From NCBI GenBank assembly GCA_964457855.1, contig CAYWEO010000002.1, positions 9,015 to 73,014 on the forward strand: a stretch of 64,000 nt of DNA, given 5' to 3'. The position numbers and the translations under genes were made by a program. This DNA comes from an uncultured Opitutales bacterium. GTDB lineage: Bacteria > Verrucomicrobiota > Verrucomicrobiia > Opitutales > CAYWEO01. Position 1 is the first letter of the stretch. Each line of letters starts with the position of its first letter. The notes below the pieces were generated by a model, which had not been told where the DNA came from, did not search any database, and worked only from the letters and a program-made list of their open reading frames with translations. Of this stretch, positions 4,272 to 62,896 are shown in pieces.

Positions 4272-5684
4272 ATGGCTGTACGTCTTTACAATACGCTTTC
4301 TCGCACCATCGAGCCGTTGACCTTTGGGAAGTCAGGGGAGAACTTCAATGTTTACTGTTGCGGACCAACGGTTTATGGGCCTGCGCACATAGGTAATTTC
4401 CGGACATTTGTATTGCAAGATGTTCTACGACGCGTATTGGAAGTTGATAGACTTAAACCGTTCTGGGTTAGGAACTTAACGGATGTTGATGATAAAACGA
4501 TCCGTGGGGCGCAACAAGAGGGTGTTTCATTGCAAGAATTTACGCAAAAATGGGCGGAGCGTTTCCATCATGATTGCGATCAACTGAACTTGTTACGTCC
4601 GCACAGAGAACCCTTGGCGACAGAGCATATCGCTATGCAAATCAACATCATACAAGGTTTACTGGACAAGGGATACGCGTATGCAGCGGAGGACGGGATT
4701 TATTTCAAAGTGAGCGCTTTTGAAAATTATGGAAAATTGTCCCGTATTGAAGCAAAAAGCCTTCTGAGTGAAGGAGTTGAGCGGCATTCCCAGGACGAGT
4801 ACGGCCGGGAAAGCGTGCGGGATTTTGCTCTTTGGAAGTCGTATAAGCCGACCGATGGCGACGTCTATTGGGAAAGTCCGTGGGGGCGTGGGCGTCCGGG
4901 TTGGCATATTGAGTGCACGGCGATGTCGATTCAACACCTGGGTGGCAACATTGATTTGCATGGAGGCGGCATCGATCTCTGCTTTCCGCACCACGAGAAC
5001 GAAATTGCGCAATCGGAGGCGTTTTTGGGTGAGCCATGGGTTCGCCATTGGTTTCACGTGGCTCATTTGATGGTTAACGGTGAGAAAATGTCGAAGAGTT
5101 TGGGTAATTTGTGGACGCTGGAAGACATTGTTAATAAGGGCTATTCGGTCGCGGCGTTGCGTTATTTGCTGATTTCTGGGCACTACCATCAAACATTAAA
5201 TTTTACGTTCGAGGGCCTTTCTGCGGCGGAGAAAGCCGTCGCAAAACTGGAGCGTTTCGTCGAGGAAAATCTTGGGCGGGAATCTATTATCGATGATCCA
5301 AAGAGTTCGCAAAAAGTCCCAAAATTGCCCGAAAAATGGCAGTTTTTTGGCGATTGTTGGGACAGTTTGACAAACAACCTCAATACTCCGGAAGCGCTTG
5401 GGCTGTTGTTTAAAAAAATAGGGTCCATTAACGGCTTAACGCCATCTGAAAGGGATATCTGCGCGGCAGAATTGCGAGTGGTTCTTTACGGATTTGGTGT
5501 AAAGTTGTTTGATAAGAAGGAGTTAGTTGTTCCGCAAGAAATTCAGTTGTTGGCTGAAAAACGTTGGCAGGCAAAGAATGATCGTAAATTTGAAGAATCA
5601 GATCGTTTGCGTAAGGAGCTTTTAGCGCTCGGCTGGAACGTGTTAGATCAGAAAGATGGCTATCAACTGGAGAAGCAAAAGTGA
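4272..5684 (+). CDS. cysS: cysteine--tRNA ligase
   Basis: HIGH-type motif GPAHIGNFRT, KMSKS motif GEKMSKSLGN, and CGWHIEC-like PGWHIECTAM. The track ORF begins at TTG 4260; the ATG at 4272 (MAVRLYNTLS) fits homologs. Confidence 0.95.
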   Translation: MAVRLYNTLSRTIEPLTFGKSGENFNVYCCGPTVYGPAHIGNFRTFVLQDVLRRVLEVDRLKPFWVRNLTDVDDKTIRGAQQEGVSLQEFTQKWAERFHHDCDQLNLLRPHREPLATEHIAMQINIIQGLLDKGYAYAAEDGIYFKVSAFENYGKLSRIEAKSLLSEGVERHSQDEYGRESVRDFALWKSYKPTDGDVYWESPWGRGRPGWHIECTAMSIQHLGGNIDLHGGGIDLCFPHHENEIAQSEAFLGEPWVRHWFHVAHLMVNGEKMSKSLGNLWTLEDIVNKGYSVAALRYLLISGHYHQTLNFTFEGLSAAEKAVAKLERFVEENLGRESIIDDPKSSQKVPKLPEKWQFFGDCWDSLTNNLNTPEALGLLFKKIGSINGLTPSERDICAAELRVVLYGFGVKLFDKKELVVPQEIQLLAEKRWQAKNDRKFEESDRLRKELLALGWNVLDQKDGYQLEKQK

Positions 5685-6772
5685 CCGCGCAGTCTTTTTA
5701 CGAGCAAGATTCGGATGCCCTTTGGAAAAACCTACAAGTTGTTGCTAGCCAAGCGAATATTCCGCTGGAGGCGTACAGGATTCGGCAGATAAAAGATTGG
5801 GCTTACTGTCGACGAATAGCGTCATGGGATTTGGCGGCAAATCTGCCTAAACCCTTGCGCCAGTTGATGATAGGGCGGTATTATTTACGTTCTGCGGAGT
5901 GTGTTTTGTCGGAAAAATCGTCAGATTCGACGGAAAAATTCCTCTTGAAACTGCGTGATGGTGCCCTCATCGAATCGGTGGTGATTTGCGATGGCGAGAG
6001 GCGGACATTATGTGTGTCGTCGCAGGTGGGTTGCGCGTACGGATGTCGCTTTTGCGCTTCTGGATTAAGGGGTTACGAGAGAAATTTGAGCACAGATGAA
6101 ATTTTGTCTCAAGTGCTGGTTGTTGAAGATGTCCTTGTCACAAGGGGACTTGCGAAGCAAAGCGATCACCTGTTGCTAGACAACATTGTGTACATGGGTA
6201 TGGGCGAACCTTTGGCGAATCGCGAGAATGTTGAGGCGTCGATTAAGATTTTGAACGCGCGGTTTCATTTTGGAGCTCGGCGCATAACGGTTTCGACGTC
6301 CGGTGTGGTTGACGAAATGGACGTTTTGGCGAAAAATCCCCTGCAGTTTCGGCTTGCCGTGAGTTTGCACGCGACGAGAAATGACGTGCGCGACGCCATC
6401 ATGCCCGTAAACAAAAAATATCCGTTGGAGAAGCTGTTGCAGGCAATTGAACGGTTTTCGCAGACCCACCACGGAATGGTGACGCTCGAATATATTTTGA
6501 TCAAGGGGCTCAACGATTCTCTCACGGATGCCCGCGAGTTGAGCGCAATTGCGAAAAAATTGCACGCACACGTGAATTTAATTCCCTACAACCCAATCGA
6601 AGAATTCGCTTGGGAACGGCCTTCCGTCAGAGAATGTACCGCTTTTTTTGATGTTTTGCAAAATTGCGGCATATCCTCAACCTTGCGCAGAGAAAAAGGT
6701 TGCGGAATCAACGCCGCTTGTGGACAATTACGTCTAAGGGGGATGGTCGTTAAGGCGCCGGCGGAGAAGTAG
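5681..6772 (+). CDS. rlmN: 23S rRNA/tRNA adenine-C2 methyltransferase, radical SAM
   Basis: CxxxCxxC radical SAM motif (GCAYGCRFCASG). Length and the C-terminal CGQL motif (INAACGQLR) fit. It has a 4-nt overlap with cysS. Confidence 0.9.
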   Translation: MTAQSFYEQDSDALWKNLQVVASQANIPLEAYRIRQIKDWAYCRRIASWDLAANLPKPLRQLMIGRYYLRSAECVLSEKSSDSTEKFLLKLRDGALIESVVICDGERRTLCVSSQVGCAYGCRFCASGLRGYERNLSTDEILSQVLVVEDVLVTRGLAKQSDHLLLDNIVYMGMGEPLANRENVEASIKILNARFHFGARRITVSTSGVVDEMDVLAKNPLQFRLAVSLHATRNDVRDAIMPVNKKYPLEKLLQAIERFSQTHHGMVTLEYILIKGLNDSLTDARELSAIAKKLHAHVNLIPYNPIEEFAWERPSVRECTAFFDVLQNCGISSTLRREKGCGINAACGQLRLRGMVVKAPAEK

Positions 6773-14684: not shown

Positions 14685-14745
14685 TTCGGAAACTTTTCTT
14701 TTCTGCGGGAAAAGAAAAGTTTCCGAACCTTCAAAAGAAAAGCGA
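14685..14745 (+). repeat. repeat locus R6: H1 (14685-14727) plus linker, truncated
   Basis: TTCGGAAACTTTTCTTTTC-TGCGG-GAAAAGAAAAGTTTCCGAA followed by CCTTCAAAAGAAAAGCGAT. Confidence 0.9.
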
Positions 14746-27077: not shown

Positions 27078-28223
27078 CTAGGCGTCGCCGCAGGCGATAG
27101 CAAACGCCTCGAGTTTTTTGCGTTGGTCGGAGGTGAGTTTTTCGGGCACTTCGACAGCGACTTTGACGAGGAGGTCGCCCTCGTGTTGCGTTTTGAGATT
27201 GGGCATGCCATAACCCTTGAGGCGGAAAGTCGTGCCGGATTGAGTGCCGGGAGGGATCTTTAGGGTCATTTTGCCTTGGAGGGTGGGGATTTCGATGGAG
27301 CCTCCGAGGGTGGCGAGGGTGAATTTGATAGGTTGTTGGTAAAAGAGTTGATCGCCCTCGCGGTCAAAGAGTTCGTGCTCCTTGACGTTAATGACGACGT
27401 ACAAATCGCCTGCGGGACCGCCATGTGCGCCGCTTTCGCCATGTCCGGAAGAACGCAGTTTGGAGCCAGTATCAACGCCCGGTGGAATGCGCATTTTGAT
27501 CTTCGTGACTTCTTGAATGTGGCCAGTTCCGCCGCATTGTGTGCAGGGTTTTTCAATGATTTCGCCGGCTCCGTGACAGGTGGGGCAGGTTTGGGTCATG
27601 CTGAAGAATCCTCGGGAAGTCGTGACTTGGCCGCGGCCGTGGCACGTGGGGCACGTTTTGTGGGAGCTGCCGGGTTGAGCGCCGGTTCCGTGGCACGATG
27701 GGCAAGCGACGGCCCGCTTATACTGGATGTCTTTTTCGACACCCTTCGCGGCCTCCTCGAGGGTAACTTCTAAATCATAACGCAAATCAGATCCGCGCGG
27801 GGCTTGACTTCTTTGCGCGCTACGACCGCTGCCGCCATCGCTGAAAAAGCCGTCAAAGAAGCCGCCAGATCCGCCGAAAACTTCGCGAAAAATGTCAAAT
27901 GGATCGTGAAAATTGCCCCCCGCCCCAGTACCTGTGCCCATTCCGCCGCTTCCCCCGCCTCTTCGTTGAGCTCCCGGGTAGTTTTGGAAGCCGCCGGGTG
28001 CGAAGGCAGCGTGGCCGAATTTGTCGTAAGCGGTGCGTTTATCGGCGTCCTGTAAAACCTCGTAGGCTTCGGAAACTTTCTTGAATTTTTCCTCAGCAGC
28101 CTTATTTCCCGGGTTTTTATCTGGATGATGCTGAACGGCTTTCTTCCGATACGCTTTTTTAATTTCTTCCGCCGAGGCGTCCTTTTTAACGCCCAATAAA
28201 GTATAATAATCGTCCTTTTGCAT
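27078..28223 (-). CDS. dnaJ: molecular chaperone DnaJ
   Basis: J domain with HPD ([11 protein letters not shown]), a G/F-rich region and four CxxCxGxG zinc-finger repeats. Confidence 0.95.
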
Positions 28224-28241: not shown

Positions 28242-28877
28242 TTAGGAGTGGGGTTCTTTTGAAGCACTTGAGTTTGCGGGTCCGCTCGAAACAACGACCG
28301 TTGCTGGGCGGATCAAGCGCTCCTTCCATTGGTAACCTAGGCGGATGGTTTGGACAACGTGATCCTCCGGGATCGTGTCGTGCGCGATGTGAGAGACGCA
28401 CTCGTGCTTCAATGGATTGAAGGGACTGTTGGCGGCCGGAGAAATGCGCTCGATCCCCCTGTTGGTAAGGAGCGATTCCAGTTGATTGTAAATGATTTGG
28501 AACCCGCTAATGACGGCTGCGTCCTCGGTCGCCTGCTTTGTAGATTGAAGCCCCATCGCGAAATTGTCGATGATCGGTAAAAGGTCCTCCGTAAGGTTAA
28601 CAAACGCGTTCTGGATCATCTCCTCACGCTCGCGGATCATGCGCTTCCGGGAATTCTCTAAGTCCGCGTACGTGCGCAGATACTTTTCCTTAAAACTTTC
28701 CGCCTCCTGCTGAAGACTCTCCACCTTTGCCAACAGCTCCGAAAGATGCGTATGATCGCCATGATGCCCCTTCCCCCCCTTCTCGTGATCGCACGCCTCA
28801 CACGTGTGCTTGTGCGTATGAGAAGAATGCTCCTTCTTGTGCGAAGAACCTTTGTCCGTAGTTTCGTGCTGTGTCAT
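28242..28877 (-). CDS. grpE: nucleotide exchange factor GrpE with a His/Cys-rich N-terminal extension
   Basis: GrpE core (YLRTYADLENSRKRMIRE ... RLIRPATVVVS). The N-terminal ~45 aa read SSHKKEHSSHTHKHTCEACDHEKGGKGHHGDHTH. Confidence 0.9.
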   Translation of the reverse strand: MTQHETTDKGSSHKKEHSSHTHKHTCEACDHEKGGKGHHGDHTHLSELLAKVESLQQEAESFKEKYLRTYADLENSRKRMIREREEMIQNAFVNLTEDLLPIIDNFAMGLQSTKQATEDAAVISGFQIIYNQLESLLTNRGIERISPAANSPFNPLKHECVSHIAHDTIPEDHVVQTIRLGYQWKERLIRPATVVVSSGPANSSASKEPHS

Positions 28878-28911
28878 ATTGATGGAAAGGGATAGAAATA
28901 GGAAAGGTATA

Positions 28912-29194
28912 TTCGGAAACTTTTCTTTTCAAGAGAAAAGAAATAGTTTCCGAACCTTCAAAAGAAAAGCTATATCGGAAGGCATTTTAGTTCGGCCTGT
29001 AAGGCCGAACTAAAATGCCTTCCGAATACGAAAAGAAAAGAAGAGCAAAATCGGTTTGGCGCCGTCGATTTCGAGATGATAGGCAGGCGCACGAGATCAA
29101 GATGCCTGAGCGTACTAACACGTACGTGATGGCATTGAGATCGATGTGCAACGAACCTAGCGCTCGAAATCGCTACGGCGCCAAACCGATTTTT
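28912..29194 (+). repeat. repeat locus R10: H1 (28912-28954), H2 apex variant (28975-29025), FB-alpha (29047-29194)
   Basis: FB arms AAAATCGGTTTGGCGCCGTCGATTTCGAG / CTCGAAATCGCTACGGCGCCAAACCGATTTT. The right arm ends inside the hsp20 stop codon (29193-29195). Confidence 0.9.
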
Positions 29195-29663
29195 AGGCGA
29201 TATTTATTTTACTGGGCTTCTTTATGGCGAGTTTGGGGATGGAGATAGAAAGGATACCGTTATCGTATTTCGCGACGATTTTATCTGGGGTGATGCCATC
29301 TGGGATGGAGATGGAGCGAGTGACGTAGGATTGGTAGGAGGACTCGCAGGATTTGTTTTTGCATTCTTTGTGGGCAGAGGCCTTGATGGTGAGGATGTTA
29401 TTTTCGAATTCGATGGAAACATCCTCTTTGTTGAACCCTGGGAGGGCGGCCTTTGCGATGTATTGCACATCGTCTTCGTAGAGGTCGATGGGGAAGCTCT
29501 TCATGTCGTGGGAGCCTTCGATTTCGTCGTCTAGGAAGTATTTGAACCATCTGTCGACGATGGAGAAGGGGCTTTCTTCGTGATGAAAAACGCCGAATGG
29601 ATCCATGAGTCTTCTTTCTGGATGGTTATGGTGATGATGGTGGTTATGTTTCATTAGTTGCAT
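29193..29663 (-). CDS. Hsp20/alpha-crystallin small heat-shock protein with an N-terminal His run
   Basis: Alpha-crystallin domain (AALPGFNKEDVSIEFENNILTIKA ... AKYDNGILSISIPK). The N-terminus is MQLMKHNHHHHHNHPE. Confidence 0.9.
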   Translation of the reverse strand: MQLMKHNHHHHHNHPERRLMDPFGVFHHEESPFSIVDRWFKYFLDDEIEGSHDMKSFPIDLYEDDVQYIAKAALPGFNKEDVSIEFENNILTIKASAHKECKNKSCESSYQSYVTRSISIPDGITPDKIVAKYDNGILSISIPKLAIKKPSKINIA

Positions 29664-29711
29664 AGTATTGTCTTTGTTAAGGTTAATTAAATTAAACGAC
29701 TAATCTTTATT

Positions 29712-29727
29712 AGCAATTCACGTGCCA
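29712..29727 (-). promoter_or_regulatory. sigma54-type -24/-12 promoter candidate for hsp20
   Basis: The minus strand reads TGGCACGTGAATTGCT, i.e. TGGCACG-N4-TTGCT. The -12 GC lies about 50 nt upstream of the hsp20 ATG (29663). Confidence 0.55.
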
Positions 29728-29787
29728 TTATATAATTGAAAAAATGAAAAGTAAAGACGTCATTTTTTTATCACAGAAGGCGCGTGT

Positions 29788-29805
29788 TGTGTCAGAATTG
29801 ACACA
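29788..29805. promoter_or_regulatory. inverted repeat TGTGTCA-N4-TGACACA, candidate activator (UAS) or operator site upstream of the hsp20 promoter
   Basis: 7-bp perfect arms centred about 70 bp upstream of the -24 element. The half-site resembles the dnaK upstream repeat (CCTGTG[A/T]CA). Confidence 0.4.
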
Positions 29806-51695: not shown

Positions 51696-52016
51696 TCGGA
51701 AACTTTTCTGTTCCAGAACAGAAAAAGTTTCCGAACCTTCAAAAGAAAAGCGATATCGGAAGGCATTTTTTGGCACTACGTGCCAAAAAATGCCTTCCGA
51801 ACAAAGATTTTTTTGGAAAGGGTCCAGGGAAACCTATTTTTTGCAAAAAATGGTTTTTTCGGCACAAAACATCTAAAAACAACGAACCAAAGGACGCCGT
51901 AGTAAGTTCGAGATGACGAGCAGGCGCGCGAGGATTTTAACCCCTGAGCGTATTGTAATACGTGATGGGGTTGAAATTTGAGCGCAACGAACTCGCCGCT
52001 CGAAATCGCTACGGCG
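51696..52016 (+). repeat. repeat locus R17: the full four-module array H1 (51696-51735), H2 (51756-51800), H3 (51824-51862), FB alpha/beta chimera (51905-52016)
   Basis: All modules lie in canonical order between the divergent glgB and dnaG starts. The FB ends 8 nt before the dnaG ATG. Confidence 0.95.
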
Positions 52017-58605: not shown

Positions 58606-58776
58606 TTCGGAAACTTTTCTTTTCCAGAGAAAAGAAATAGTTTCCGAACCTTCAAAAGAAAAGCGTATCGAAAGGCATTTTTCTGGCATGTAATGCCAGA
58701 AAAATGCCTTTCGAATTAAGAGTTTTTAAGGGGGAGGCCCGGAGGGGGTGCTTTTTGCAAAAAACACCCCCTCCGG
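58606..58776 (+). repeat. repeat locus R21: complete H1 (58606-58648), H2 (58668-58714), H3 (58739-58776) array
   Basis: The array starts 4 nt after the mnmA stop. The H3 variant is CCGGAGGGGGTGCTTTTTGCAAAAAACACCCCCTCCGG. Confidence 0.95.
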
Positions 58777-58808: not shown

Positions 58809-58839
58809 CAACTCCTGTGACATTTTGTCACAGGAGTTG
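58809..58839. promoter_or_regulatory. perfect 14-bp inverted repeat CAACTCCTGTGACA-TTT-TGTCACAGGAGTTG, candidate activator or operator site upstream of dnaK
   Basis: Arms at 58809-58822 and 58826-58839, centred about 63 bp upstream of the -24 element. It is not part of the H/FB repeat families. Confidence 0.45.
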
Positions 58840-58885: not shown

Positions 58886-58901
58886 TGGCACGGAAATTGC
58901 T
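58886..58901 (+). promoter_or_regulatory. sigma54-type -24/-12 promoter candidate for dnaK(-groES-groEL)
   Basis: TGGCACGGAAATTGCT, i.e. TGGCACG-N4-TTGCT. The -12 GC is only 15 nt upstream of the dnaK ATG (58915), implying a very short leader. Confidence 0.5.
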
Positions 58902-58914
58902 TTGGAGTATAATC

Positions 58915-60870
58915 ATGACAAATCGAGATTCTAAAAAAGTTTTAGGAATTGACTTAGGGACGACTAATTCCTGCATGGCGATCATGGAAGGCGGCCAGCC
59001 GGTCGTCATCCCAAATGCTGAGGGTGCCCGGACAACGCCTTCGGTGGTGGCCTTTACGAAAACGGGGGAGCGCATCGTGGGACAAGCGGCTAAAAGGCAG
59101 GCCGTAACCAATCCTGCCAACACCATTTTTTCTGCTAAGCGCTTGATTGGACGCAAGTTCAAGGAAGTGCAGAGCATTACGAAACGCCTACCGTACAAGG
59201 TTGTTGAAGGGAAAAATGGCGATGCGTTTATCGAGTGCCAGGTGGGCGGTAAGACCGAACGCTTTGCGCCAGAACAGATTTCTGCCATGGTGCTGGCGAA
59301 ATTGAAGGCCGATGCGGAAGCTTATTTGGGCGAAAATATCAAGCAAGCGGTGATTACAGTTCCCGCGTATTTCAATGATTCCCAACGACAAGCGACGAAA
59401 GATGCCGGTATGATCGCTGGCCTTGAGGTGTTGCGCATCATCAACGAACCCACAGCGGCGTCTCTTGCATACGGTCTGGACAAGAAAAAAGACGAAACAA
59501 TCGCTGTTTATGACTTGGGTGGAGGGACTTACGACATTTCCATTTTGGAAATCGGCGACGGCGTTTTCGAGGTAAAAGCGACGAATGGCGATACGTTGCT
59601 GGGCGGAGATGACTGGGATGAGGCCATTATTGCGTGGTTGGCAGACGGATTTCAAAAAGAGTATGGGATCGATTTGCGTAAAGATCCCATGGCGCACCAA
59701 CGACTTAAGGAAGAGGCGGAAAAGGCAAAAATCACCCTCTCTTCGGCTCAAGAAACCGATATCAACCTGCCTTTCATTACGGCAGACGCGAGCGGTCCTA
59801 AGCACTTGAATGTCAAGCTTTCGCGCTCCAAGCTAGAACAAATTTGCGACGCTTTACTGCAACGGACAATTGCTCCGTTTGAAGCTTGCTTAAAAGACGC
59901 GAAACTAACGACGGCGAACATCAAAGAGCTTGTGCTGGTGGGCGGTATGACGCGCATGCCGAAAGTCATCGAGCTTGCGGACCGTTTGACGGGTAAAAAT
60001 GCCAATCAAGGTGTTAATCCAGACGAAGTTGTGGCCGTTGGAGCTGCGATTCAAGGAGGCGTGCTAAAGGGAGAAGTCGGCGACATTCTTTTGCTCGACG
60101 TGACTCCACTGACGCTCGGTATCGAGACAGCCGGCGCAGTTGCCACTCCCATGATCGATCGCAACACGACGATTCCCACGAAAAAGGCCCAAATCTTTAC
60201 GACGTACGCCGACAATCAGACGGGCGTTGACATCAAGGTCCTTCAAGGAGAACGTCCGATGGCGCGTGATAACAAGCTATTGGGCAACTTCCGACTGGAA
60301 GGCCTTCCGATGGCGCAACGCGGACAACCGCAGATTGAAGTCACATTCGACATCGACGCGAATGGCATTTTGCACGTGACAGCCAAGGACTTAGGTACTG
60401 GGAAGGATCAAAAAATCACCATTACAAGCGCGTCCGGTCTGTCCAAGGACGAAATCGATAAGCTCAAACGCGAGGCCGAGAAAAATGCCGAGCAAGATAA
60501 GGTTATTAAAGAAACCATCGAGGCTAGAAACCACTTGGATTCTCTCGTTTATCACGCAGAAAAGCAGATGAGCGAGTTTGCGAGCAAGTTACCAGCAGAC
60601 AAAAAGCAGGAAATCGAAACTTCTCTTGCCGATGCAAAGAAAGTTTTGGCCAACGAAAACGCTTCTTTGAACGAGATCAAGGACGCTGAAAACGCCCTCA
60701 GTGCGAAGATTCAGGAGATCGGAAAGGCCGTCTATGCCAATGTCAATCCTCAGCAGCAGCCCGGGACCGAAGCACAGTCCTCCCAACAAGGGCAAGGATC
60801 GGCAAAAACGGAACCCAACCCAGCTGAAAAAGTCGTTGATGCTGAAGTCATTGACGAGAGTAAGAAGTAA
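58915..60870 (+). CDS. dnaK: molecular chaperone DnaK
   Basis: [28 protein letters not shown]. Start trimmed to ATG 58915 ([15 protein letters not shown]). Confidence 0.95.
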
Positions 60871-60924: not shown

Positions 60925-61233
60925 ATGAGTGTAGAAAAAATGAAAATCAAACCAATTGGAGATCGTATTCTCGTTAAGAGATTGGACGACAAGGAAGAAC
61001 AAGTCAAGGGAGGCATTATCATCCCAGATTCGGCCAAAGAGAAGCCACAAGAAGGAGAAGTGATTGCTCTTGGGACGGGACACAGGAATCAGGATGGGAA
61101 AATCACTCCCTTCGAGGTTAAGGTCGGCGATCGCGTCCTCATCAGTAAGTATGGTGGGAGCGAAGTCAAAATTGGAGACGAGAAGTATCATCTTCTTAGA
61201 GAAGAAGATATCTTGGGCGTTTTCAGTAAATAA
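60925..61233 (+). CDS. groES: co-chaperonin GroES
   Basis: [12 protein letters not shown] ... [21 protein letters not shown]. An alternative start at ATG 60940 gives MKIKPIGDR. Confidence 0.9.
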
Positions 61234-61255: not shown

Positions 61256-62896
61256 ATGGCAAAACAATTATTATTTGATGAAGCAGCACGGAAGAAGATT
61301 CTAAAAGGCGTCGATATTCTCGGCAATGCCGTGAAGGTGACGCTTGGACCTAGAGGACGAAACGTCGCTATTGAGAAAAAGTTTGGCGCCCCGATGGTGA
61401 CCAAAGACGGCGTTACAGTTGCTAAGGAAATTGATCTACAGGATCCCTTTGAAAACATTGGTGCTCAGATGGTGAAGGAAGTCGCTTCCAAGACCTCCGA
61501 TAAGGCGGGCGATGGGACCACGACGGCAACCGTTTTGGCAGCAGCGATTTACCGCGAAGGCCTCAAAAATGTGGCCGCTGGGGTTAATCCCATTTACTTA
61601 AAGCGCGGCATCGACAAGGCAGTTGAGGCGATCGTCAAGGAACTCGCCAATAACAGTCAGAAAATTAACGGACGCGACGATATTTGCAAAGTGGCGACCG
61701 TTTCCGCAAACTGGGACGCCAGTATCGGTAAGATCATCGCCGATGCCATGGACAAAGTGGGCAAAGACGGCACTATCACCGTTGAAGAGGCCAAAGGCAT
61801 CGAAACATCGCTCGACGTCGTCGAAGGCATGCAATTTGACAAGGGTTATTCAAGCCCCTATTTCGTCAGCAATGCCGAGAGAATGGAATGTGTTCTTGAC
61901 GACCCTTACATCCTGATTCACGAAAAGAAAATCAGCAGTTTGAATGACTTACTGCCTTTGCTCCAAACCATCGCGAAATCCGGCAAACCTCTCTTGATCA
62001 TTTCAGAAGAAGTTGAAGGAGAAGCCCTTGCGGCCTTGGTGGTCAATAAGTTGCGCGGGACGCTCAATGTTTGCGCAGTCAAAGCTCCCGGATTCGGCGA
62101 TCGTCGGAAAGCGATCATCGAAGACATCGCAGTCTTAACCGGTGGCCGTTGTATTACGGAAGACTTGGGCGTTAAGCTCGAAAACATTCACATCGAAGAC
62201 CTCGGAAAAGCCAAGAGGGTCACTGTTGACAAAGACAACACGACCATCGTCGAAGGCTACGGAAAAGACAAAGATATCCAAGCACGCGTGAAACAAATTC
62301 GTCACCAAATCGAGGAAACCACCTCGGATTATGATCGCGAGAAATTGCAAGAACGCTTGGCAAAATTGGCAGGCGGGGTTGCCGTCATCAAAGTTGGCGC
62401 TGCGACAGAGCCAGAAATGAAAGAAAAGAAGGCTCGCGTTGAAGACGCTTTACATGCGACACGCGCTGCCGTCGAAGAAGGTATCCTTCCAGGCGGAGGC
62501 GTTGCCTTATTGAGAGCAGCAAAGGTGATTGATGCCCTGCAATTCTCCGACCCAGACGAAGCCAGCGGTGCACAAATCGTTCGCAAAACGATGTCTGCCC
62601 CTCTTCGCGAACTCTGCAACAATGCCGGAATCGAGGGCTCCGTGATCGTCGAGAAAGTTCAGGCTGGGACACCCTACGGCTACGGCTATAACGTTGCCAC
62701 AGGCCAGTTCGAAGACCTCCTCAAAACGGGTGTCGTCGATCCCACAAAGGTCACACGCTCGGCTCTGCAAAATGCAGCCTCCGTCGCAGGTCTCCTCCTA
62801 ACGACAGAGTGCGTCATTGCCGACATCCGCGAGGAAAAATCCTCCAAAGGTTCCCCAGATATGGGCGACATGGGTGGAATGGGCGGCATGATGTAA
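61256..62896 (+). CDS. groEL: chaperonin GroEL
   Basis: [12 protein letters not shown] and the C-terminal GGMGGMM tail, 546 aa. Confidence 0.97.

Follow-up and report, generated by a model that had tools for sequence, protein, structure and literature searches.

A probable sigma-54 promoter with an upstream palindrome ahead of hsp20 in an uncultured Opitutales bacterium, and its counterpart at dnaK-groES-groEL

In the textbook cases, bacterial chaperone genes are controlled by sigma-32, by HrcA and the controlling inverted repeat of chaperone expression (CIRCE), by HspR or by CtsR; outside the well-studied phyla, chaperone induction is to our knowledge largely unknown. Sigma-54 promoters stay silent unless an activator opens them at the expense of ATP. 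Here, we describe a 64,000-nucleotide stretch of DNA from an uncultured Opitutales bacterium (contig CAYWEO010000002.1, positions 9,015 to 73,014; hereafter the window) in which the small heat-shock gene hsp20 is preceded by a -24/-12 core of the sigma-54 type and, further upstream, by a perfect palindrome. It is probable, in our view, that hsp20 is transcribed from the sigma-54 promoter at 29712-29727 and controlled by an activator bound at the palindrome. The same two-part device would drive dnaK-groES-groEL, which lies 29 kb from the hsp20 promoter.

Several described systems resemble this arrangement in part. In Myxococcus xanthus, HsfA/HsfB, an NtrC-type response regulator and a histidine kinase, activate lonD from a sigma-54 promoter. 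As at hsp20, a heat-shock gene is placed under a sigma-54 promoter and its activator, but the phylum is a different one, the target is a protease and the binding site is unrelated; for the window the activator is a candidate only. The ibpB gene of Escherichia coli is likewise a small heat-shock gene behind a -24/-12 element. That promoter is internal and secondary in the sigma-32-controlled ibpAB operon, whereas the window holds no sigma-32 element and has the same core before dnaK-groESL as well. The NtrC sites at glnAp2 (TGCACCA-N3-TGGTGCA), which are located about 100 bp or more upstream of the -24/-12 promoter, are similar in geometry, with a 17-bp dyad of two heptamers 3 bp apart upstream of the promoter. 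They differ in that the half-site here is TGTGNCA, the hsp20 spacer is 4 bp and the genes concerned are chaperone rather than nitrogen-assimilation genes. The hrcA-grpE operon of Chlamydia (PMC8762339) is a heat-shock operon with a sigma-54 promoter from the same group of phyla, the Planctomycetes-Verrucomicrobia-Chlamydiae (PVC) group, and it too shows a possible overlap with a housekeeping promoter. HrcA/CIRCE stays the main control in Chlamydia, whereas in the window CIRCE is absent and a conserved palindromic site, the putative enhancer, is present.

A broader precedent is a 2025 survey with position-specific scoring matrices (PMC12316311). In the excerpted text of this survey, GroEL, IbpA/Hsp20, GroES, GrpE, DnaJ and DnaK are enriched among the predicted sigma-54 targets of Planctomycetota and Bacteroidota. 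For Opitutia the same excerpts list motility, nitrogen fixation and ABC transporters and do not report the chaperone cluster as enriched, and they define neither an enhancer motif nor an activator. An initial annotation of the window, made from the sequence alone, had called sigma-54 control of the core chaperones unusual; given the predictions in these excerpts it appears less so. The regulons that the excerpts describe resemble the present one in having sigma-54 promoters before chaperone genes, and Planctomycetota belong to the same PVC superphylum. The difference from the excerpted account is that an enhancer, TGTGNCA-N3-TGNCACA, and its position are defined here, and that the gene order dnaK-groES-groEL travels with the promoter. 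Neither dnaK nor groEL nor Verrucomicrobia is named in the text of Francke et al. (2011). In the literature we found no description of sigma-54 chaperone control or of heat-shock control in Verrucomicrobiota, and none of a TGTGACA enhancer.

The hsp20 gene (29193-29663, minus strand) encodes a protein of 156 residues with a His-rich N-terminus (PF00011, E = 2.4e-17). Upstream of it the minus strand reads tataaTGGCACGTGAATTGCTaataaag, a stretch that spans the sigma-54 -24/-12 core TGGCACGTGAATTGCT at 29712-29727. The T of TGGCAC is at 29727, the GG doublet at 29726-29725, the GC doublet at 29714-29713 and the last T at 29712. The two doublets are exactly 10 bp apart, as in sigma-54 promoters, and the core fits every specified position of the consensus, whether this is written as TGGCACG-N4-TTGCW (12 positions) or as TGGCAC-N5-TTGCW (11 positions). 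It is intergenic and in the sense orientation, inside the 348-nt gap between hsp20 and nusB, and is separated from the hsp20 ATG by 48 nt. The initial annotation had described a full sigma-54 match with correct GG/GC spacing about 50 nt before the ATG; the match is confirmed to the base, and all of its coordinates were found to be correct on rereading the sequence. If, as is standard, the C of the GC doublet is counted as position -12, transcription would start near 29701. The resulting 5' leader of about 38 nt (29664-29701, minus strand) would be AU-rich, unstructured (minimum free energy of -1.6 kcal/mol, z-score of +0.5) and without a Shine-Dalgarno sequence.

The putative enhancer of hsp20 is the palindrome TGTGTCA-ATTC-TGACACA at 29788-29805 on the minus strand, which has no mismatch (ccCTGTGTCAattcTGACACAac is the minus-strand reading of 29805-29788). 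From its centre the distance to the GG doublet downstream is 71 bp and that to the predicted start about 95 bp, which is within the roughly 80-150 bp upstream of the start at which the dyad sites of NtrC-type enhancers are placed. Its half-sites are the heptamer that is enriched upstream of dnaK in the PVC loci described below. Between the palindrome and the promoter there is a degenerate half-site, TGTGATA (29769-29775, minus strand; a 6/7 match to TGTGACA), for which a role as an extra half-site is something that we infer from its letters only.

A second sigma-54 core, TGGCACGGAAATTGCT, is located at 58886-58901 on the plus strand, with its GC doublet 14 nt before the dnaK ATG at 58915. It precedes dnaK (58915-60870), groES (60925-61233) and groEL (61256-62896), all on the plus strand; the closest DnaK matches, with identities of up to 77%, are from Opitutaceae, Puniceicoccales and Opitutales metagenome-assembled genomes (MAGs). 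According to the initial annotation the same 16-nt core recurs here. This holds for the 12 specified positions, which are identical, but the N4 spacers differ (TGAA versus GAAA). The putative dnaK enhancer, about 60-70 bp upstream of the core on the plus strand (58809-58839), contains TGTGACA-TTT-TGTCACA (58816-58832), which fits the 7-3-7 consensus without a mismatch. A longer perfect palindrome of 31 bp, with arms of 14 nt each (CAACTCCTGTGACA ttt TGTCACAGGAGTTG), surrounds this site and so exceeds the 17-bp consensus. The distances from enhancer to core are 71 bp at hsp20 and 63.5 bp at dnaK; because of these distances the two enhancers are not in phase, and helical phasing was set aside as an argument. 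A perfect TATAAT is also present at 58908-58913, 1 nt before the dnaK ATG, and is paired by the promoter scan with GTGGCA as a sigma-70-like element; it cannot serve dnaK because the start would fall inside the coding region.

The two cores stand out clearly from the background of the window. The exact pattern TGGCACG-N4-TTGCW is present in two copies, compared with 0.017 expected from first-order Markov simulations, and none of the 300 simulations reached two copies. When one mismatch is allowed the same two sites remain the only matches. Both are intergenic and each is oriented towards a chaperone gene. All six chaperone genes of the window fall in two clusters behind the two cores, and Pfam scans of 30 of the larger open reading frames of the window revealed no further heat-shock gene. 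The possibility that both hsp20 elements are chance matches in AT-rich intergenic DNA draws on the single heptamers TGTGWCA/TGWCACA, which are not enriched in the window (13 versus 10.7 expected). The signal, however, is the palindrome paired with the core and not the single heptamers: each of the two exact cores is accompanied 60-80 bp upstream by a perfect palindrome of the same half-sites, each pair is located before chaperone genes, and at dnaK the conservation of both elements extends across phyla. We consider a chance origin to be highly improbable.

This conservation was assessed by comparing 80 dnaK loci, of which 31 are from the PVC set (Verrucomicrobiota, Lentisphaerota, Omnitrophota and relatives) and 49 are not (Acidobacteriota, Chloroflexota and others). 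The 250 nt upstream of dnaK were searched for GG-N10-GC with at least 9/11 matches to TGGCAC-N5-TTGCW. A -24/-12 element was found on the sense strand in 22/31 PVC loci but in only 2/49 non-PVC loci, and the PVC controls gave 0/31 for same-size regions inside dnaK and 2/31 for the antisense strand. Five Omnitrophota-like loci fail the filter only because the -12 element reads TTGA or TTGT (for example TGGCACGATAATTGA). The gene order dnaK-groES-groEL is kept throughout Verrucomicrobiota and Lentisphaerota, and the same promoter device is carried by Akkermansia (locus L019) and by Opitutaceae isolates.

The upstream motif emerges when all 7-mers within 280 nt upstream of dnaK are counted without bias in 26 PVC loci. 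The top word is TGTGACA/TGTCACA, with 21 occurrences in 11 loci compared with 0.16 expected (129-fold), and it is followed by overlapping words and by TGGCACA, which is the -24 element itself. The hsp20 version, TGTGTCA/TGACACA, occurs nine times in eight loci (0.31 expected; 29-fold). The half-site CCTGTG[AT]CA, already proposed for this DNA, agrees with the top word. Nearly all of the heptamers fall between -160 and -60 relative to the T of TGGCAC, and none is closer to it. The spacing was examined with 42 left half-sites, requiring at least 5/6 matches to TGNCACA in the right half-site: a partner is present at a spacer of 3 in 11/42 and at spacers of 1, 2, 4, 5 or 6 in 0-1/42 each. This preference for a spacer of 3 defines the conserved enhancer as TGTGNCA-N3-TGNCACA, and the dnaK site of the window has this heptamer-3-heptamer geometry.

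A filter for the core together with an upstream heptamer returned 27 matches in 1.27 Mb, 21 of which are before dnaK or hsp20. They include an hsp20 gene on an unrelated contig (L089/L090, 3780-4001), where CGGCAAAGATTTTGCA precedes the ATG by 98 nt and is itself preceded by TGTGACA at a distance of about 110 nt. The Hsp20 protein encoded there is 43% identical to that of the window, and its gene has the same two-part promoter design. Other sigma-54-like matches in the compared loci are intragenic, look like chance and were discarded. Since the device at dnaK is conserved through Verrucomicrobiota and Lentisphaerota, hsp20 would be placed in a lineage-wide sigma-54 chaperone regulon, and the core chaperones appear to be under an ATP-dependent activator rather than sigma-32 or HrcA.

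Searches for the established alternatives are in line with this view. CIRCE (TTAGCACTC-N9-GAGTGCTAA) has no match within three mismatches in the window, while a perfect CIRCE at the locus of a distant Hsp20 homologue (L081) provides a positive contrast. The sigma-32 consensus CTTGAA-N12-16-CCCCAT has no match in the window either, so that the earlier observation of neither CIRCE nor a sigma-32-type promoter at hsp20 is borne out. The HspR-associated inverted repeat (HAIR) was not found near the chaperone genes. RNA thermometers (fourU and ROSE, the repression of heat-shock gene expression element) gave no relevant Rfam match in the hsp20 leader at E values of up to 1, and the leader is predicted to be unstructured.

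Gene neighbourhoods in relatives link the sigma-54 machinery to dnaK. In a Chthoniobacterales MAG (L008) a complete rpoN (4347-5723) is located directly upstream of dnaK-groES-groEL and ends about 280 bp before dnaK. Its product has the activator-interacting, core-binding and DNA-binding Pfam domains and the RpoN box ARRTVAKYR, and the dnaK promoter that follows reads TGGCATATCACTAGCT, with TGTGTCA 147 bp upstream. In five further loci, three from Omnitrophota and two from unclassified MAGs, a protein with a receiver domain, a Sigma54_activat domain (with the GAFTGA motif) and an HTH_8 domain is encoded directly upstream of dnaK (L022 4443-5804, L030 3568-4941, L049 4437-5789, L053 4438-5790 and L055 4403-5761). 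These five activators are mutually 65-68% identical, and the dnaK promoters at their loci have TTGA or TTGT at -12 where the consensus has TTGC. The linkage ties sigma-54 and an activator of the response-regulator type to dnaK in the wider group. An activator fragment 5 kb upstream of dnaK in another locus (L027) was dropped, as it has a different helix-turn-helix and is separated from dnaK by unrelated genes. In a profile search with the five activators, the best 120 homologues listed were Omnitrophota-labelled or unlabelled (one as 'bacterium'), and none was labelled Verrucomicrobiota.

Taken together, these elements suggest the following mechanism. RNA polymerase with sigma-54 would bind TGGCACG-N4-TTGCT as a closed complex that is unable to open alone. 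An activator of the NtrC family, an AAA+ ATPase with a Fis-type helix-turn-helix, would bind TGTGTCA-N4-TGACACA about 95 bp upstream of the start and reach the polymerase by looping of the intervening AT-rich DNA, and ATP hydrolysis by this activator would then open the promoter. The transcript would begin near 29701 with the unstructured leader of about 38 nt described above. The start site, like binding and looping, is predicted from the sequence of the locus, the inducing signal would presumably be heat or protein-folding stress and the activator may be a response regulator like that of Omnitrophota, to judge by analogy.

Several observations weigh against this proposal. The first concerns the promoter itself, where a sigma-70-like element, TTTACT-17-TATAAT (29727-29755, minus strand), abuts and overlaps the hsp20 core. 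It is a 10/12 match with a perfect TATAAT as the -10 element; this TATAAT is joined directly to TGGCACGTGAATTGCT, overlaps the T of TGGCAC and is preceded by AT-rich DNA. The element may serve for basal transcription or may have arisen by chance. The housekeeping sigma factor might alternatively read hsp20 from it, in which case the sigma-54-like core would have no function or would be a roadblock or an operator. In Chlamydia, hrcA-grpE is reported to have a housekeeping and a sigma-54 promoter in tandem (PMC8762339), and at hsp20 the two types could likewise be present together, with the sigma-70 promoter giving basal expression. However, the sigma-70-like match is not above chance (1 versus 2.7 expected in shuffles of the region), and the analogous TATAAT at dnaK, 1 nt before the ATG, cannot serve that gene. 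Transcription by the housekeeping sigma factor would also leave the second exact core at dnaK and the phylum-wide conservation of the -24/-12 element unexplained. We regard it as quite unlikely that sigma-70 accounts for hsp20 expression in this way.

The palindrome provides a second set of reservations. The initial annotation had judged its distance and symmetry to be typical of sites for enhancer-binding proteins; the perfect dyad and its distance of 71 bp from the GG doublet uphold this, but the spacer is 4 bp rather than the 3 bp of the regulon consensus, and a partner at a spacer of 4 is seen in 0/42 of the relatives' sites. It might then be that the sigma-54 promoter is real but that the palindrome is structural or serves some other dimeric regulator as an operator, for instance a CRP/FNR-like protein or a repressor, and that the activator binds elsewhere or acts from solution. 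The consensus of the CRP family is TGTGA-N6-TCACA, and the TGTGA...TCACA of the palindromes resembles its half-sites. The spacer of the hsp20 palindrome also differs from that of the dnaK palindrome, the sigma-54 activator of Chlamydia is known to have no DNA-binding domain and the profile-search matches listed include none labelled Verrucomicrobiota. Against this, the CRP-like interpretation fails because the pentamers are spaced by 7 bp at dnaK and by 8 bp at hsp20 (TGTGT/ACACA), not by the 6 bp of CRP/FNR sites. In the relatives the sites keep a distance of 60-160 bp from the -24 element, on its upstream side, and none overlaps the promoter, which is the position of an enhancer and not of an operator. 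The heptamer-3-heptamer arrangement is the geometry of classical NtrC sites, and it is specifically at chaperone genes that the motif is found together with -24/-12 cores. An operator or structural role for the palindrome therefore seems unlikely to us.

The remaining reservations concerning activator-dependent transcription of hsp20 come from gene content and from the relatives. Pfam scans of 30 of the larger open reading frames found neither rpoN nor a sigma-54 activator within the window, and no close orthologous hsp20 locus was found in the collections searched. Homologues of Hsp20 are few and distant (44% identity at best) and have their contexts in unrelated organisms; one of them adjoins a homing endonuclease gene, and only L089 resembles the window. 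The closest GrpE homologues (from an Opitutales MAG, Coraliomargarita parva, Opitutaceae TAV4 and a Logan contig) have neither hsp20 nor a sigma-54 core before grpE. The same is true of 27 peat-metagenome loci (DnaJ identity of about 55%), in which grpE-dnaJ has sigma-70-like promoters. The hsp20 arrangement may therefore be lineage-specific. GrpE itself is at most 48% identical to known proteins, with named matches from Opitutales, Coraliomargarita, Didemnitutus and Opitutaceae TAV strains, and a GrpE-based scan of species genomes gave no match. By its DnaK and GrpE matches, the window comes from an Opitutales-like verrucomicrobium that is poorly sampled.

Two of these relatives, the Opitutales MAG (L125) and C. 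parva (L126), have a conserved sigma-32-like element, GCCCTTGAA-N14-CCRCACAC, before grpE. The block that is conserved between the two, GCCCTTGAATTCTSYGAATTTATCMSCACAC, is located some 60-110 nt ahead of grpE (locus positions of about 4890-4950) and resembles a sigma-32 promoter. Some Opitutales may therefore split their chaperones between sigma-32 (grpE-dnaJ) and sigma-54 (dnaK-groESL). In the lineage of the window, hsp20 is likely to have been placed, together with the promoter design of the regulon, in front of grpE-dnaJ.

Downstream of hsp20, grpE (28242-28877) and dnaJ (27078-28223) follow on the minus strand as possible further members of its transcription unit, and the window scan found no other sigma-54 core near them. 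On the other side, nusB, ftsY and rluD run opposite to hsp20 from 30012. The 315-nt spacer between hsp20 and grpE (28878-29192, minus strand) contains three consecutive stable hairpins formed from repeat elements, with a predicted folding energy of -150 kcal/mol (z-score of -19.9), and a U-rich run comes after the middle hairpin. The inverted repeats of the spacer include 24-nt perfect arms at 28975-29025, and one hairpin is an element of 147 bp (29047-29193) that begins at the hsp20 stop codon and has terminal inverted repeats of 19 nt. The spacer may terminate or attenuate hsp20 transcription and thereby uncouple grpE-dnaJ, which may not be co-transcribed with hsp20; it could also stabilize the hsp20 mRNA.

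Part of this spacer belongs to an intergenic repeat family with the core TTTCCGAACCTTCAAAAGAAAAG, which is present in 14 copies in the window compared with 0.05 expected, often in long perfect hairpins. Copies are found, for example, at 28947-28969, 58641-58663, 14720-14742 and 51728-51750, and they flank both chaperone promoters. The family looks like a repetitive extragenic palindromic (REP) element or a miniature inverted-repeat transposable element (MITE). Hsp20 and GrpE both have His-rich N-terminal extensions (MQLMKHNHHHHHNHPERRL, 29606-29663, and HKKEHSSHTHKHTCEACDHEKGGKGHHGDHTH, 28770-28877, respectively). The Joint Genome Institute (JGI) gene call for a 99%-identical Hsp20 is 19 residues shorter, which suggests a start at an internal Met.

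The position of the dnaK core relative to its gene has a further consequence. In the window and in the Opitutae-like loci (L001, L003, L004, L005, L006, L007 and L009) the GC of the -12 element is only 10-15 nt before the dnaK ATG, and the sigma-54 transcript would therefore be leaderless or begin at most about 3 nt before the start codon. The GGAG of the window (58904-58907) would be situated upstream of the sigma-54 start site. In other Verrucomicrobiota and in Lentisphaerota the dnaK leaders are 50-130 nt long with AGGAG.

What is new here is a defined enhancer motif together with its comparative support; the mechanism itself is that of a standard enhancer-dependent sigma-54 promoter. In a wider proposal, Verrucomicrobiota, Lentisphaerota and related PVC bacteria would have dnaK-groES-groEL, and here also hsp20, on sigma-54 and a dedicated activator at the 17-bp site TGTGNCA-N3-TGNCACA. 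This would be a third general solution to heat-shock control beside sigma-32 and HrcA/CIRCE, with the stress-induced dnaK mRNA of Opitutae being leaderless; we see the case for this proposal as evenly balanced. With dnaK, groESL and hsp20 behind sigma-54 promoters, tight on-demand control by a signalling protein would be implied, in contrast to control by the stability of a sigma factor or the folding of a repressor. The analysis offers an enhancer motif, a promoter model and organisms in which both can be tested (Akkermansia, L019, and the Opitutaceae isolates), and the receiver-AAA+-helix-turn-helix proteins encoded beside dnaK in Omnitrophota are a candidate activator family from which to start. 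It thus provides a testable entry into chaperone control in a large and little-studied group of bacteria, in which a possible leaderless stress mRNA would be a lead for the study of translation.

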